Sequence record: OR539219.1
Reading direction: 5' to 3' (one strand)
DNA length: 64,000 nucleotides
Source of the DNA: Escherichia phage vB-Eco-KMB39
Shown: positions 2,449-33,562 of the stretch, in pieces
Numbering within the stretch: the stretch's first letter is position 1
Layout: every line of letters starts with the position of its first letter
Program-made: the position numbers and the translations under genes
Notes under the pieces: generated by a model
What the model was told of the DNA's origin: nothing
Database searches by the model: none
What the model saw: the letters and a program-made list of their open reading frames with translations, nothing else

Positions 2449-4268
2449 TACTGGCTCATCCATTCTTTGCGAAGGTCAGCATTATCTCCCATGAGCATTT
2501 CAAAAAGCTCTTTCCAGTTCTCAGGAAGTTTAACAACATCATATACTGGATTTTGAATCATCTCACGATATTCAGATTTTTCCAAAGAGCCAAGTCCTTT
2601 AATATAACGGATGCTATGTTTAGGTAGAGCATCTTTGGCACTCTCATATTCAGCGACTGTATAAAACCATTCTTGTTTTTTACCGACCTGAGCGATGATT
2701 ACAGGAGTTTTGACAAAGCGAATTCTTCCTTGTTCAAACAGTTCTGGCCAATTACTAAAAAATCCGAGCAGAGAAGGATAAATGCTTCCTAGACCATCAT
2801 GGTCAGCATCAGTCATAATAGCAATATTATGATAATTCAAGTTTTCGGCTTTTTCACCAAGAACTAATCCAGTGATTGCGCAAATATCAAACAGCTCTTT
2901 GTTTTTAAGCATATCAGCATATGACATACCCCAGCTGTTAAGAACTTTACCACGCAATGGATAACCGCCATGAAGTTCTTTATCACGAACATCAATAAGA
3001 TATCCGATAGCAGAATCACCCTCAGTCAAGAAAAGAGTAGTGTCAGCATCTTTACCGCAAAGATTCGCTTTAATATGTTTGTGAACCTTAGCTTTAGAGG
3101 CCTTTTTAGCTGCTTTAGTTTCTGCTGCTTTTTCTGCCGCCAATTTACGAGCCAAAGCAGCTTCAATGATTGGCATTAAAATTGCTTCATTATTCAAAAT
3201 AGCACGTGAAATCTTTTTAGCATCAAGCTGAATATGACTACGGATTTCACCAAATGGAGAAGTCAGACGCTCTTTAGTTTGAGAATCAAATCGCATGTTT
3301 TTCATATCACGAACAAACATAACAATAGTCAAACATTCTTTAACACGTGCTTTAGTTACATCAATTTTGAATTTACGCTTGATTTGCGGAATAAGGTCTT
3401 CACAAATATCATCCATAACACAGTCAATGTGATGGCCACCATTCTTAGTATGAATGTTATTGACGTATGTTAATTGACGAAAACCATCCGGTGAACGACC
3501 AACCGCAATAGAACAATTTTCTTGTTCTTGAACAATAGCATGTTCATCATATTGGCGTGCATATTTCTTAAAATTACCCTGAACCTTTTTACCATTAAAG
3601 GTAAATTGAATATCAGGATAAACTACCGCAAGTGTCTGGAGACGATCTAGTGTAATGTCAAGATAAACTTGAGATAGCTCATTAGTTTCAAATGACATAA
3701 AATCAGGAATGAAAGTAACGCGAGTTCCTTTCCATTTTCCAGGAATATCTTCCCACGATTTATTTTCCATGCCATTCGAGCAGCGAACTACAATATTATT
3801 TTGACCGTCGCCAGTTTCACCGACAAACATCACAGAAAAAATGTTAGTTAAACTAGAACCAACACCATTCATACCACCGGTGACACGTTCTTTATCATCA
3901 CCAAAGTTACCACCCGCTTTTGGAATAGTCCAAGCAGCAACTGGACCAGGAATTTCTTCACCGGTAGGTGTTTTAACCATCGCTTGTGGAATACCACGAC
4001 CGTTATCTTCAACTGTTACTTGATTGTTTTTGATAGTAACATTAATTTTATTTGCGAATTTAAACTTAGTACGAATACCTTCATCTACTGAGTTATCGAT
4101 AATTTCATCAATAAGCTTAACAAGACCAGGTACATACTGAACACTTTCCCATTTACCAAACAGAAAGCGCTCATGCATTTCATTAGCAGAAGAGCCAATA
4201 TACATGCCGCTACGCTTTTTGATATGTTCAATATCGCTCAGAATTTTAATTTCATTCTTAATCATCAC
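2448..4268 (-). CDS. 39: DNA topoisomerase II large (ATPase, GyrB-like) subunit, uninterrupted form
   Basis: 606 aa with GHKL ATPase motifs (EDNGRGIP, GGMNGVGSS); single ORF, T2-like fused 39+60 arrangement. Confidence 0.9.
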   Translation of the reverse strand: MMIKNEIKILSDIEHIKKRSGMYIGSSANEMHERFLFGKWESVQYVPGLVKLIDEIIDNSVDEGIRTKFKFANKINVTIKNNQVTVEDNGRGIPQAMVKTPTGEEIPGPVAAWTIPKAGGNFGDDKERVTGGMNGVGSSLTNIFSVMFVGETGDGQNNIVVRCSNGMENKSWEDIPGKWKGTRVTFIPDFMSFETNELSQVYLDITLDRLQTLAVVYPDIQFTFNGKKVQGNFKKYARQYDEHAIVQEQENCSIAVGRSPDGFRQLTYVNNIHTKNGGHHIDCVMDDICEDLIPQIKRKFKIDVTKARVKECLTIVMFVRDMKNMRFDSQTKERLTSPFGEIRSHIQLDAKKISRAILNNEAILMPIIEAALARKLAAEKAAETKAAKKASKAKVHKHIKANLCGKDADTTLFLTEGDSAIGYLIDVRDKELHGGYPLRGKVLNSWGMSYADMLKNKELFDICAITGLVLGEKAENLNYHNIAIMTDADHDGLGSIYPSLLGFFSNWPELFEQGRIRFVKTPVIIAQVGKKQEWFYTVAEYESAKDALPKHSIRYIKGLGSLEKSEYREMIQNPVYDVVKLPENWKELFEMLMGDNADLRKEWMSQ

Positions 4269-4308
4269 TTATCCTCGTTTGGTTTCGGGAATATTATACT
4301 CCGGTAAT

Positions 4309-4326
4309 CATAAAGCTAAAGGCCCG
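4309..4326 (-). terminator. UUCG-tetraloop hairpin between 39.1-position gene and gene 39
   Basis: minus strand GGCC-UUCG-GGCC stem-loop then UUUAGCUUU. Confidence 0.4.
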
Positions 4327-4334
4327 AAGGCCTT

Positions 4335-4607
4335 TTATTTAAAACGAATAGTTGAATCCTTAAAGAACAGCCCAGAACATACTGTTCCTTCTACTTTCTG
4401 CCCAGTAGATCCAACAGCACGAAATCCAGTATGTTGGAAATCATTTTCAGAGCAACCGAACCAGTTATATCCAGTGATTTCAATATTCGTAAAACCACTT
4501 GATGATAAAATTTTAGTTGCATTATCAGCATCAGTGCATCCTACTAAAGATACTGCTAATACTAATGCTGCGATAGAACGATTAACATATTTCATAATTT
4601 CACTCAA
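4335..4607 (-). CDS. putative lipoprotein (39.1 position)
   Basis: 90 aa; signal peptide with lipobox LVGC near N-terminus. Confidence 0.45.
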   Translation of the reverse strand: MSEIMKYVNRSIAALVLAVSLVGCTDADNATKILSSSGFTNIEITGYNWFGCSENDFQHTGFRAVGSTGQKVEGTVCSGLFFKDSTIRFK

Positions 4608-4971
4608 ATTTAATGGCTTGAAGGAGACTAATAATTCTCAAGCGACTTCTTTCATCTTTAACTGTAAAAGAAAGAGGATCGCCGGATTTCATAGTAATAG
4701 TACATTCAAAATTAAAATCTTCGGAAACTTCTTTGAAGAAGTCAAATTCTTCATCATAAATTAGAACATTACTCTGACAACTATGAAGAATTTTTCCATC
4801 ATTTCCAGATGCTGTACTAATCATTGTAACATTATGACCTTTCATATCTTCAACGATAAATTCGCTAGTCAATATTACAGCATTAATAGAACTATTCCTA
4901 TTACTAGCAGAAAGTAGATATTTCTGTTCTTCACCTTCGCGAATACGATATTTCTTACCGATTTTAAACAT
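4600..4971 (-). CDS. hypothetical protein (39.2 position)
   Basis: 123 aa ORF, tightly packed with neighbours. Confidence 0.4.
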   Translation of the reverse strand: MFKIGKKYRIREGEEQKYLLSASNRNSSINAVILTSEFIVEDMKGHNVTMISTASGNDGKILHSCQSNVLIYDEEFDFFKEVSEDFNFECTITMKSGDPLSFTVKDERSRLRIISLLQAIKFE

Positions 4972-29030: not shown

Positions 29031-29060
29031 TTAATTTTATAACTAATTTAATAAAGCAAT
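29031..29060 (-). promoter_or_regulatory. candidate MotA-dependent middle promoter upstream of gene 45
   Basis: minus strand aaTTGCTTTA (MotA-box-like) followed about 10 nt later by TATAAAAT. Confidence 0.4.
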
Positions 29061-29449
29061 TAACGATTAAAATCAGCAGCAATTGTTTCCGCAACAATTT
29101 GAGCAGCAACAATTAGACGTTCATCTGCATTACCGCAATAATCATCTTCAAGGCGTTCACCACATGAAGTCATAATAAATTTAGCACCAGCATTTAGAGA
29201 TTCTGTCGTATGTTTGCGCATTAGTTCAATCCATTTATCACTCACTTCACGATCGATAGCTTCATAATACGCATGACGAGCAGGTGCAGATTTAATTTTG
29301 TTCTGAATAACTTCCATTGCGTTATCAGAAAGAGACAAAACCCATGCTCGACGAATTTTATTTTGGTTTTGCGGATTTGATTCAGAACGCACGTGTTTTG
29401 GCTGAATATCTTTTACGTCAACAGTATAATTCACAGTAATTTTAGTCAT
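29060..29449 (-). CDS. rpbA: RNA polymerase-binding protein RpbA
   Basis: 129 aa equals T4 RpbA; position upstream of 45. Confidence 0.6.
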
Positions 29450-29458
29450 AATACACCT

Positions 29459-29650
29459 TTAGTCATAATAATCAGTAACAGTCCAAGCTTCATTTCTATT
29501 GGACATTATTTTCGTATATTCTGCTTTAAATGCATTCTTAAGCATAGATTCAGTAACTATATGCTCTTCATTAGAAAAATTATTTCTCAGAATATATCGT
29601 TTTATTTCAGGAATAGTTAATAGATGCTGTCCAGTTGAATATTCTGCCAC
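29459..29650 (-). CDS. hypothetical protein (45.2 position)
   Basis: 63 aa ORF. Confidence 0.4.
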   Translation of the reverse strand: MAEYSTGQHLLTIPEIKRYILRNNFSNEEHIVTESMLKNAFKAEYTKIMSNRNEAWTVTDYYD

Positions 29651-29663
29651 AATTCCTCCGTAT

Positions 29664-29671
29664 AAATATGT
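29664..29671 (+). promoter_or_regulatory. T4 late promoter upstream of the HNH endonuclease gene
   Basis: plus strand TATAAATA about 30 nt upstream of ATG at 29702. Confidence 0.6.
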
Positions 29672-29701
29672 TTATCACTCGCTGTATCAAAAGGATATGT
29701 T

Positions 29702-30418
29702 ATGAATTATAAACTAATTTATGAAAAGTTAATCTCTAATGCTAAATCTCGAAAACTTGATTGCTATACTGAATCTCATCACATTATACCACGCTGTTTA
29801 AATGGCAGCGATGATGCTTCAAACTTAGTAGATTTAACACCAGAAGAGCACTATGTAGCTCATCAACTTTTAGTAAAAATTTATCCTTCTGAACCAAAAT
29901 TAGTCTATGCTGCTAACATGATGACAGTTTCCACGAAATACGCTAAACGCAACAATAAAACTTTCGGTTGGATTCGTCGTAAACTCTGGGAAATAGAAAA
30001 GAATAAAGAATTCTCCCAGGAGACACGAAAGAAAATGTCTGATGCAGTAGCTAATAAAGCAAGACTAACTTGTCCTCATTGCGGTAAGTCTGGATTAAGC
30101 GGGAATATGAATCGATGGCATTTTGATAACTGCCCGAATCACCCTAATCCTAAAGTTAGACCACCGATGTCTAAAGAACACAGAAATAATATCTCAAACG
30201 GGCTTAAAGCAATCATTCTTGAAGAAACATCCTGCGAATTCTGCGGAATGATAGGCAAGAAATGCGTTATCGCAGCGCATAGAAATTTCTGCAAGAAAAA
30301 TCCAAATGGACGCAAGAAAACTGAAAAGACTGGTACTTGCGTCCATTGTGGTAAAGTTACCACTTTCGGAAATTTATCAAGGTGGCATAATGATAACTGT
30401 AAATATAAACCTAGCTAA
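29702..30418 (+). CDS. HNH homing endonuclease with three C-terminal C2HC zinc-binding repeats
   Basis: 238 aa on opposite strand; HNH motif ESHHIIPRCLNGSDDASNLVDLTPEEH; repeats CPHCGK...RWHFDNC, CEFCG...HRNFC, CVHCGK...RWHNDNC. Confidence 0.8.
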   Translation: MNYKLIYEKLISNAKSRKLDCYTESHHIIPRCLNGSDDASNLVDLTPEEHYVAHQLLVKIYPSEPKLVYAANMMTVSTKYAKRNNKTFGWIRRKLWEIEKNKEFSQETRKKMSDAVANKARLTCPHCGKSGLSGNMNRWHFDNCPNHPNPKVRPPMSKEHRNNISNGLKAIILEETSCEFCGMIGKKCVIAAHRNFCKKNPNGRKKTEKTGTCVHCGKVTTFGNLSRWHNDNCKYKPS

Positions 30419-32099
30419 TCTTAGCTAAACTAAATCTACCAACTTTTTCCATTTGAATATGCTGACCATATTCTTGTGGGTCATGGTCTTTATGCGAAAT
30501 TATGAAGAAGTTGGTATCCTTTAAACCATCTAAAATTTTAGCTACATTTTTAATACCTTCAGCATCAAATGCACCGTCATACACTTCATCAAGAAATAAA
30601 CAACTTATTTTAACACCTGAAACTTTTTCAGCAATATCACGCCAAGTAAATAAAAGAGCAATATCAATTCGTGCTTTTTCACCTTGACTAAATGAAGCAT
30701 AACTAAAATCTTCACGACCACGGGATTTAATTGTCTCATTAAATTCTTCATCTAATGTAAACACATAATCCGCTTCCATTATTTTAAGATAATGGTTAAT
30801 CTGCTTATTAAATAATGGAATGTACTTTTTAATAATAGCACCTTTAATACCAGAATCTTTGAGCATATCAGTCAAAATTCCTCTATGGTATTTTTCCATT
30901 ACTAAATTAGTTTTTGTCTTAACAATTTTATCAAGTTCTTCTTGAAGCAGTGCTATTTCATCAGCATGGTCAATAAACTCGGATGATGCTTTTTCTATAG
31001 CCGCTTTAACTTTTTTAGCTTTATCTACCGTCGTGATTAGAGATTGCTTTTTATTGCGAATATCATTTGCCAACGTCTGCTGGGTTTTAATATTATCTCG
31101 GTATTCATCAACAAGAACTTTTAAATTATCACGGTGTGTTGAAAGCTGTTCAAATGAATGCGTACATTCAGAAACTTTATCTTTAATTTTAGAAACAACT
31201 TTATCACCGGAACTTAATTGTGACAAACAGGTTGGACATAATCCACCTTCGTGATACATATTAATGACTTTATTATACGAGTCAATTTTTGATTTAATTA
31301 AAAATGCTTCTTGACCGATTTTATTAAATGCATCAGTCGGGTCTTCATCCAAAACAATATTAACTAATCTTTCATTAGCTTCTTCTATTTCCGATTTTAG
31401 CGTTCTAGCTTCTTTTGCCAAATCGTCATACATATTCTGCAGACGAGTAAGGTTGTCACCAGACAATTTTTTCTGGCGTTCAACATTATCATTATATATT
31501 TTAATTTGTTGGATAATACTATCTTTTTTAACATCAAGCACTTGGTTTTGTGAATTTAATTCACGTATTAGTGCTTTATTAAGCTTATCCATTTCAGCTA
31601 ATGTTCCTACTTCGAGCAGGTCTTCGACAAGCTTTCTTCTTGCAGGAGTGGATAGGCCCATGAAAGGGGTATATCCAGCCGTGCCGAGTACGACGATCTG
31701 TTTGAAACTGGCGTATGACATTCCGATAAGCTGTTCAAATTCTGCTTGGAAATCTTTACTGCTGGCAGATTCATTAAGACGTGTACCGTTAACGGTGATT
31801 TCGAAAACATTTGGTTTTTGTCCTCTTTTAATATAGTATTTTTTCTCATCATATTCCATCCACAATTCAACTAAAAGTTCTTTCTTATTTGTACTGTTTA
31901 TTAATTGGCCTTTCTTTACATCACGAAATGGCTTGCCAAAAAGCCCAAATGTGATGGCTTCTAACATAGTAGACTTTCCACCGCCATTTCGTCCAGTAAT
32001 AAGAGTTTTTTGAACCTTATCTAATTGAATGTCAATAGGATTTCCACCTACTGACATTATATTTTGATACCTAACTCGGTTTAGTTTAAAATTCTTCAC
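30411..32099 (-). CDS. 46: recombination nuclease subunit (Rad50/SbcC-like)
   Basis: 562 aa; Walker A GRNGGGKST, coiled-coil, zinc hook CPTC. Confidence 0.9.
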   Translation of the reverse strand: MKNFKLNRVRYQNIMSVGGNPIDIQLDKVQKTLITGRNGGGKSTMLEAITFGLFGKPFRDVKKGQLINSTNKKELLVELWMEYDEKKYYIKRGQKPNVFEITVNGTRLNESASSKDFQAEFEQLIGMSYASFKQIVVLGTAGYTPFMGLSTPARRKLVEDLLEVGTLAEMDKLNKALIRELNSQNQVLDVKKDSIIQQIKIYNDNVERQKKLSGDNLTRLQNMYDDLAKEARTLKSEIEEANERLVNIVLDEDPTDAFNKIGQEAFLIKSKIDSYNKVINMYHEGGLCPTCLSQLSSGDKVVSKIKDKVSECTHSFEQLSTHRDNLKVLVDEYRDNIKTQQTLANDIRNKKQSLITTVDKAKKVKAAIEKASSEFIDHADEIALLQEELDKIVKTKTNLVMEKYHRGILTDMLKDSGIKGAIIKKYIPLFNKQINHYLKIMEADYVFTLDEEFNETIKSRGREDFSYASFSQGEKARIDIALLFTWRDIAEKVSGVKISCLFLDEVYDGAFDAEGIKNVAKILDGLKDTNFFIISHKDHDPQEYGQHIQMEKVGRFSLAKIS

Positions 32100-32546: not shown

Positions 32547-33562
32547 TGTGTTGCCTCTACATATAACTGATTTGCATATTGAATAAGTGCTTCGCGATCA
32601 GAATCAGTGATGTCTGGAATTGCATTAATGTATTCTTCCATCAACGTCTGAAGAGATTGAACTTCAACCTCTTCGCTATCATCTGACTCGACAGAGTTAT
32701 CAATCTTTGACACAACTCGTAATGAATGCACAACTTTTTCTAGTTCAGATTCGAACTTCGTCAGATTTTTGTCTACCTCAGTTACTATAACACGTACTGA
32801 CAGATTTGTAAAATCTTTATAGTCAATTTTTCCCTTAAATGGATATTGAATTCGACGATGCCAGGTAGTGTTGTTTGGAATAAATTCCATTCGTTCTGTT
32901 TCTGTATCAAACATCCAGAACCCGCGAGGGTCATTCTCGTCACCTGCAGTTAGTGTCCATGGTGTCCCAATATATTTGACGTTAGCAGCCTCAGAGATAG
33001 TATGGAAGTGACCAGACCACACTTCTTTATAAGTCTTAAGGAAATCAGGTTCAAGACCGTGAGATTTCATTCCTTTATAAAAATAAAATCCATTCAGTTC
33101 CCAGTGACCAACACAAAAGGAAGCAGATGAAGTTTTAATATGTTCAAGAATTTCACCGGTATTTTCTTCACACATCCAAGGAATTAAATCAATCAAACAT
33201 CCGTCAAAATCTACTGTAGTAGGCTTATCATATACTTTAACATTAGGATATTTAGCCAAAAGCTCAGTAGAAGCATTTGGAGTTAAAGTATTTTTAAAGT
33301 GCATATCATGGTTTCCTACAACAGTATGTAGGGTAATACCAGCATCATCAAGCATTTGAACTATTTCACGTGCGAACTCCATAGTTTTATGCGTGATTGC
33401 TTTTCGCACATCAAAAATATCACCGTATTGAATCCATGTAGTAATTCCATTTTTCTTAGAATATTCTATCGCCTGCTTAATTCCATCCAGCTGGATTGAT
33501 TGAACCCACTCATCATCGGCTTTAACGCCTAAATGCCAATCACCTAAATTTAAAATTTTCAT
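32543..33562 (-). CDS. 47: recombination nuclease subunit (Mre11/SbcD-like phosphoesterase)
   Basis: 339 aa equals T4 gp47; metallophosphoesterase motifs GDWH, GNHD. Confidence 0.9.
   Translation of the reverse strand: MKILNLGDWHLGVKADDEWVQSIQLDGIKQAIEYSKKNGITTWIQYGDIFDVRKAITHKTMEFAREIVQMLDDAGITLHTVVGNHDMHFKNTLTPNASTELLAKYPNVKVYDKPTTVDFDGCLIDLIPWMCEENTGEILEHIKTSSASFCVGHWELNGFYFYKGMKSHGLEPDFLKTYKEVWSGHFHTISEAANVKYIGTPWTLTAGDENDPRGFWMFDTETERMEFIPNNTTWHRRIQYPFKGKIDYKDFTNLSVRVIVTEVDKNLTKFESELEKVVHSLRVVSKIDNSVESDDSEEVEVQSLQTLMEEYINAIPDITDSDREALIQYANQLYVEATQ

Follow-up and report, generated by a model that had tools for sequence, protein, structure and literature searches.

The gene at positions 29702-30418 of the window (the whole stretch of 64,000 nucleotides analysed here) is very probably a free-standing homing endonuclease of the T4 Mob class, and probably one that is still active, as judged from its sequence and from the comparison of related phages with and without it. 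It is real but is an ordinary selfish gene, already annotated in dozens of related phages, and its annotation value is accordingly small, as that of a routine Mob-class homing endonuclease named in public records. It also serves as an example of a selfish nuclease gene that carries along a variant catalytic motif of an essential recombination protein, here the gene 46 product (gp46), and it yields a prediction for a Mob enzyme, namely that its target falls in a stretch of about 120 bp of gene 46 surrounding the Walker-B codons. An earlier note on this DNA, made from the letters alone, is partly supported by these results, being right about the kind of gene, wrong about the novelty that it implied and probably mistaken on the position of the target.

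Gene layout and protein architecture

The window belongs to a T4-like genome of the genus Tequatrovirus, a 2.3-kb query matching records of that genus at up to 98.7%, and the minus-strand gene order around the endonuclease gene is 44, 45, rpbA, 45.2, 46, 46.1, 46.2, 47. The features of the locus and of the protein are as follows.

29060-29449, minus strand: rpbA (phrog_1285)
29459-29650, minus strand: gene 45.2, the left neighbour, 63 aa with a GTG start (phrog_1045)
29645-30430, plus strand: inserted segment of 786 bp, bounded by blastn break points at 29644 and 30431 against nine empty-site genomes
29702-30418, plus strand: homing endonuclease open reading frame between 45.2 and 46, 238 aa with an ATG start
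29702-30031, plus strand: Mob-type HNH nuclease domain, about aa 1-110, by homology to MobB and MobE (HNH motif at aa 24-54)
30071-30133, plus strand: CCHC zinc finger 1, aa 124-144, by regular expression; strand-strand-helix in the AF2 model, pLDDT above 90
30233-30292, plus strand: CCHC zinc finger 2, aa 178-197, by regular expression; strand-strand-helix in the AF2 model
30338-30400, plus strand: CCHC zinc finger 3, aa 213-233, by regular expression; strand-strand-helix in the AF2 model
30411-32099, minus strand: gene 46, the right neighbour, encoding a Rad50/SbcC-like recombination nuclease subunit, from record annotations

The endonuclease gene is intergenic, within neither an intron nor an intein, and converges with gene 46 so that the two stops overlap by 8 bp, an overlap that the earlier note had also read. 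The same note had called it the only substantial plus-strand gene of the window, which holds as far as tested because PHROGs gave no match for the only other plus-strand frame of more than 150 aa (4204-4764, 186 aa); that frame is probably a chance one, antisense to real genes. At position 29652, within the inserted segment, the window has A and seven other carriers have G.

The convergent 8-bp arrangement, together with the finding of no terminator-like site on either strand between 29300 and 30800, would suit a reading in which the late transcript is more important than the protein: it would run antisense into gene 46 and damp the expression of 46 and 45.2 late in infection. We regard this as extremely improbable, since purifying selection acts on the amino-acid sequence (see below) and the protein has clear nuclease homology, which leaves any antisense effect as a side effect at most.

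That nuclease homology is seen at several levels. The protein matches phrog_655 ‘homing endonuclease’ (E = 1.1e-68, PHROGs) and is 44% identical to T4 MobB over its first 126 aa (E = 6e-30, BLASTP) and 43% identical to T4 MobE over 120 aa (E = 2e-29, BLASTP). The motif ESHHIIPRCLNGSDDASNLVDLTPEEH occupies aa 24-50, the HNH-domain residues E24, H26, H27, N41, H50 and H54 are invariant across 46 homologs, and the AF2 model (mean pLDDT 92.5) has a strand-strand-helix core at aa 24-60. Profile searches backed the HNH reading of the earlier note in part: the Pfam HNH model (PF01844) gave 16.9 bits, under its gathering threshold of 21.4 bits, while a profile built from the alignment of the 46 homologs matched the HNH motifs (HH..N..H) of McrA (E = 4.6e-4), Cas8-HNH, IscB and a group II maturase, and some family members (P0076, P0115-P0120) do pass PF01844. 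The assignment to HNH nucleases is therefore based on homology to MobB and MobE and on the profile match to solved HNH domains, with Pfam below threshold.

The C-terminal part is a predicted beads-on-a-string DNA-binding region, comprising two NUMOD3-like helices and three CCHC fingers. The earlier note had described three tandem zinc-binding repeats; the three repeats are there, with the spacing C-x2-C-x11-12-H-x3-C, but they are not strictly tandem, being separated by linkers of about 30 aa that contain NUMOD3-like helices. NUMOD3 is below threshold for this protein in Pfam (E = 0.14) but homologs carry PF07460, and helices 106-117 and 158-169 of the AF2 model cover the NUMOD3-like segments. 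Finger 3 is the one kept throughout the wider family, its ligands C213, C216, H229 and C233 being invariant in the 46 homologs. The CCHC spacing and the secondary structure of the model are compatible with classical C2H2-like zinc fingers of strand-strand-helix fold, but the best Foldseek matches, CTCF finger arrays, reached only E = 0.013, and whole-chain fold searches of the endonuclease model gave no significant match. Proteins of the Mob class have a common N-terminal HNH domain, and each has a C-terminal DNA-binding region of its own, in which zinc fingers are frequent (PMC2790892, PMC10448857); a shared HNH domain followed by a region of its own thus gives the window protein the architecture of that class.

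Like MobE, the endonuclease gene is free-standing and polymorphic among T-even phages, but MobE has 141 aa, no promoter of its own, the orientation of its neighbours and no CCHC fingers (Wilson & Edgell 2009, PMC2790892), whereas the gene described here is oriented against its neighbours, is preceded by a late-promoter box of its own and encodes three fingers. MobB shares with it an upstream promoter of its own (PMC2988022) as well as the N-terminal similarity given above, but nothing aligns significantly past aa 110, the two C-terminal halves being unrelated, and MobB is inserted at alpha-gt/alpha-gt.2. T4 segD, between genes 23 and 24, is likewise a free-standing endonuclease gene antisense to its neighbours (PMC2988022), but it belongs to another nuclease family (GIY-YIG) and has no identified promoter of its own. 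I-HmuI, a nicking enzyme (PMC2988022, PMC2790892), and I-TevIII also join an HNH nuclease to an extended modular DNA-binding region (here a predicted one), but both are intron-encoded, and no significant sequence or fold match of the window protein to either was obtained.

Occupied and empty sites in Tequatrovirus and beyond

T4 has no endonuclease at this junction, as the earlier note had supposed: its gene 45.2 ends at 33246 and its gene 46 at 33302, and the 55 bp between them hold no gene. Against T4 and eight other Tequatroviruses with an empty site, T2 among them, homology breaks off sharply at 29644 and is back at 30431, so that the inserted segment substitutes for 72 bp (the spacer plus the last codons) at empty sites. 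The insertion gives 45.2 a new start (GTG plus one codon; 63 versus 62 aa) and gp46 a new C-terminal tail, SLAKIS* (…VGRFSLAKIS versus …VGRFTVMV at empty sites); since both neighbours are rewritten in this way, clean deletion would not be neutral.

The presence/absence polymorphism that the earlier note expected of a mobile cassette is found, with 59 carriers among the 501 Tequatrovirus records that cover the junction; absence from T4 and from about 88% of these records means that the gene is far from universal at this position. FL08 encodes a protein 100% identical to that of the window, and RB32 and RB51 differ from it by 2 and 4 amino acids, respectively; their genes RB32ORF054w and RB51ORF057 are orthologs at the same junction and represent the same element. 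The records of RB32 (2006), RB51 and Aplg8 describe the gene as ‘similar to mobB, putative site-specific intron-like DNA endonuclease’, and a homing-endonuclease annotation is present in RB32, RB51 and about 57 other GenBank records. Because it has been annotated since RB32, the gene was already known, contrary to what the earlier note implied. RB32 has been tabulated with two mob-like HNH genes (PMC2993671), and our literature search found no paper on the 45.2/46 endonuclease.

Eight Tequatrovirus copies were compared; all are intact and none is truncated. Their pairwise dN/dS ratios are 0.02-0.10 in the pairs that have a nonsynonymous change (6 of the 28 pairs have none), and the protein is therefore maintained by strong purifying selection. 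At the 3' junction, RB51 has a variant (locus L015, 2143-2856) in which the endonuclease ends in ...CKHKH and gp46 in ...SVATIN, with an overlap of 4 bp; RB68, REP2/3 and NIC06P2 probably share this RB51-type junction.

Homologs occupy the same 45.2/46 position in Yersinia phage MHG19 (63% identity), Mosigvirus 348Ecol098PP (58%), Slopekvirus phT4A (43%) and Enterobacter phage EC-F1 (46%), in each case in the same orientation, convergent with gene 46 and overlapping its stop, and Cronobacter phages leN and leE have an ortholog at this junction annotated as ‘Mob-like HNH homing endonuclease’. The site is polymorphic in Mosigvirus, with no more than 14 occupied sites among about 155 close records, and in Slopekvirus, where about 66 of 114 are occupied. 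Identities of the endonuclease and of gp46 are nearly equal between lineages (63 versus 65%, 43 versus 45% and 46 versus 45%), the exception being Mosigvirus (58% for the endonuclease versus 83% for gp46).

An alternative interpretation is that the gene is a former homing endonuclease, now immobile, which survives only by being wedged against essential genes and would spread by ordinary recombination or vertical descent. The insertion does provide gene 46 with its stop-proximal codons and 45.2 with its start region, it has replaced a middle-promoter-like sequence upstream of 45.2, and endonuclease identity roughly tracks gp46 identity, as vertical co-divergence predicts. We nevertheless consider this unlikely because the low dN/dS values show selection on the protein itself, because the catalytic residues are invariant, because 0 of the 8 copies are truncated and because the frequency of the gene in three genera is intermediate or low, with neither fixation nor decay.

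Alternatively, the protein may have been recruited for a phage function, as a nuclease partner or regulator of gp46/gp47, in phage exclusion or as a DNA-binding repressor, so that its linkage to gene 46 would be functional. Position and orientation beside gene 46 are constant in five lineages, down to 43% identity, purifying selection is strong, and a conserved leader motif resembles gene 46 sequence (see below); I-TevI, an endonuclease that doubles as a repressor of its own promoter, provides a precedent (PMC2988022). However, about 88% of Tequatroviruses and most Mosigviruses manage without the gene, and the Slopekvirus site can be empty or filled with a different HNH gene, which is how selfish elements behave; a recruited function is therefore quite improbable in our view, and we retain a Mob-class homing endonuclease as the preferred reading.

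The alternative occupant of the Slopekvirus site is an ‘HNH endonuclease’ at 45.2/46 in some Klebsiella phage records, of similar span but with no megablast match to the phT4A gene, and its position suggests competing alleles of one site. Other homing-endonuclease genes occur nearby in relatives, just upstream of 46, at 45/rpbA and at 46/47 (SHFML-26, locus L010, 3842-4241; Aplg8, L020, 4416-4701; F13076, L019, 611-1498; EC-F1, L005, 4886-5416), and these placements give the 45-47 block the look of a homing-endonuclease hot spot.

The diverged end of gene 46 and a candidate target

The flanks of the insertion were compared between eight carriers and nine non-carriers (17 aligned Tequatrovirus genomes). 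Two features of gene 46 are needed here.

30431-30617, minus strand: diverged 3' tract of gene 46, codons ~495-557, about 185 bp, inherited with the endonuclease gene
30576-30599, minus strand: Walker-B codons, LFLDEVYD in the window, with fixed differences at 30580 and 30596

On the left, genes 45, rpbA and 45.2 show no fixed difference and diverge by about 1% beside the break. On the right, carriers and non-carriers differ by 14-31% in nucleotide sequence from 30431 to about 30615, with 20 fixed differences, versus 0.2-5% in the rest of gene 46 (about 3% just past the tract). Among carriers, the tract itself varies mostly by less than 2% (about 1% from 30492 on), rising to 4.5% in the stop-proximal 60 nt, mainly because of RB51. 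Since dN is 0.14-0.17 in the tract versus 0.003-0.013 elsewhere in gene 46, the tract is a segment of separate ancestry rather than a few silent ‘immunity’ changes. Linkage of tract and gene is direct in all 17 aligned genomes; carrier-type tracts at 95% identity or more were found in 59 records, the same number as that of gene carriers, and from the three equal counts of 59 that were obtained we infer that the sets are identical. Mosigvirus shows this pattern independently: its carrier differs from two non-carriers by 33-42% in the interval 80-200 nt from the stop of gene 46, with at most 5% elsewhere. This co-inherited flank is a footprint in populations and not the outcome of a cross.

The tract encodes the Walker B motif, D-loop, H-loop and C-terminus of the Rad50/SbcC-like gp46. 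Walker B reads LILDEVFD in 11 of 11 non-carrier alleles and deviates from it in 12 of 12 carrier alleles from five lineages, as LFLDEVYD, LFLDEVFD, LIMDEVMD, LILDEVYD or LIMDEVFD; the empty-site controls come from two of these lineages, MHG19, phT4A and EC-F1 being represented by carrier alleles only.

The earlier note had proposed the 45.2/46 junction of phages lacking the gene as the cleavage target, but what distinguishes carriers from non-carriers is an allele 80-200 nt from the stop of gene 46, within its 3' end, and the 45.2 side has no fixed difference. Because the 45.2 side is unchanged while the gene 46 tract is diverged, a candidate recognition or nicking site is likely to lie within the 3' part of gene 46 and not at the junction. 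The candidate target and the protection of carriers are further suggested by analogy with MobE, which lies between nrdA and nrdB and nicks nrdB near a critical codon, its own genome being protected by polymorphisms (PMC2790892); a target near a critical motif of an adjacent essential gene, with the carrier protected by sequence differences, has been shown for MobE and is predicted here. Late in a mixed infection, the enzyme would nick or cut the gene 46 allele of a phage without the endonuclease gene, the likeliest site lying 80-200 nt away from the insertion point, in or beside the sequence that codes for Walker B (LILDEVFD). Repair by recombination would then copy the endonuclease gene and the adjoining variant end of gene 46 from the carrier, whose own copy would be protected because its gene 46 end differs. 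If confirmed, this would be the third mapped target in the poorly studied Mob group, in which targets are now named for MobE and MobA only.

We caution against reading the linkage as proof. Non-carriers themselves have two deeply diverged gene 46 3' ends, a T4/HY01 type and a T2/RB18 type (dS about 0.4, dN 0.16), and these alleles (30490-30630 of the window and its equivalents) do not track the relatedness of the remaining gene 46. Two diverged non-carrier alleles and differences at the protein level make the tract itself a mosaic hot spot, and linkage by itself is therefore no proof of a target within it. The T4-type and T2-type ends may have been left by past rounds of invasion and loss.

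We tentatively propose, as a possibility well short of probable, that this endonuclease lineage has been kept beside gene 46 through at least five T4-like lineages by targeting the Walker-B codons, driving repeated replacement of the motif (LILDEVFD to LFLDEVYD, LIMDEVMD and others), and that it may act, in the manner of I-TevI, as a repressor of its own late promoter by way of a leader imitating the target.

Late promoter and leader

Three features precede the endonuclease gene.

29661-29668, plus strand: T4-type late promoter box TATAAATA, 33 nt before the endonuclease ATG
29679-29692, plus strand: leader motif TCGCTGTATCAAAA, downstream of the late promoter and ahead of the ribosome-binding site
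29691-29695, plus strand: Shine-Dalgarno-like AAGGA, 6 nt ahead of the ATG, read from the sequence

The late-promoter box that the earlier note had placed about 30 nt upstream of the gene is borne out by its position and its conservation. The octamer TATAAATA occurs three times on the plus strand of the 64 kb, including the copy ahead of the endonuclease, and is not enriched in the window (6 observed versus 10.5 expected on both strands), so its weight comes from position and conservation and not from its occurrence. It lies upstream of the homologs in RB32, MHG19 and 348Ecol098PP, so that the box is kept in three lineages, two of them besides that of the window, whereas the phT4A and EC-F1 homologs have only TTAAATA and CTAAATA, respectively.

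The core of the leader motif, GCTGTATC(A/G)AA, is retained in the leaders of MHG19 and 348Ecol098PP and thus in three lineages in all, and TCGCTGTATCAAAA may be an operator or RNA element, which we offer as speculation. It agrees at 13 of 14 positions with the reverse complement of the Walker-B codons of T2-type gene 46, an agreement equalled by 16 of 300 shuffles; we take the likeness as a lead towards autorepression of the I-TevI kind, and as nothing more than a lead.

Two motifs resembling middle promoters were also seen. The T4 spacer upstream of 45.2 (locus L001, 5245-5316) contains TGCTTTA-N11-TATAAT, which resembles a middle promoter with a MotA box and is removed by the insertion. A further motif, TGCTTTA-N13-TATTAT, lies on the minus strand within the endonuclease gene (30186-30211) in the window and in RB32 but not in the four other lineages, and is probably due to chance.
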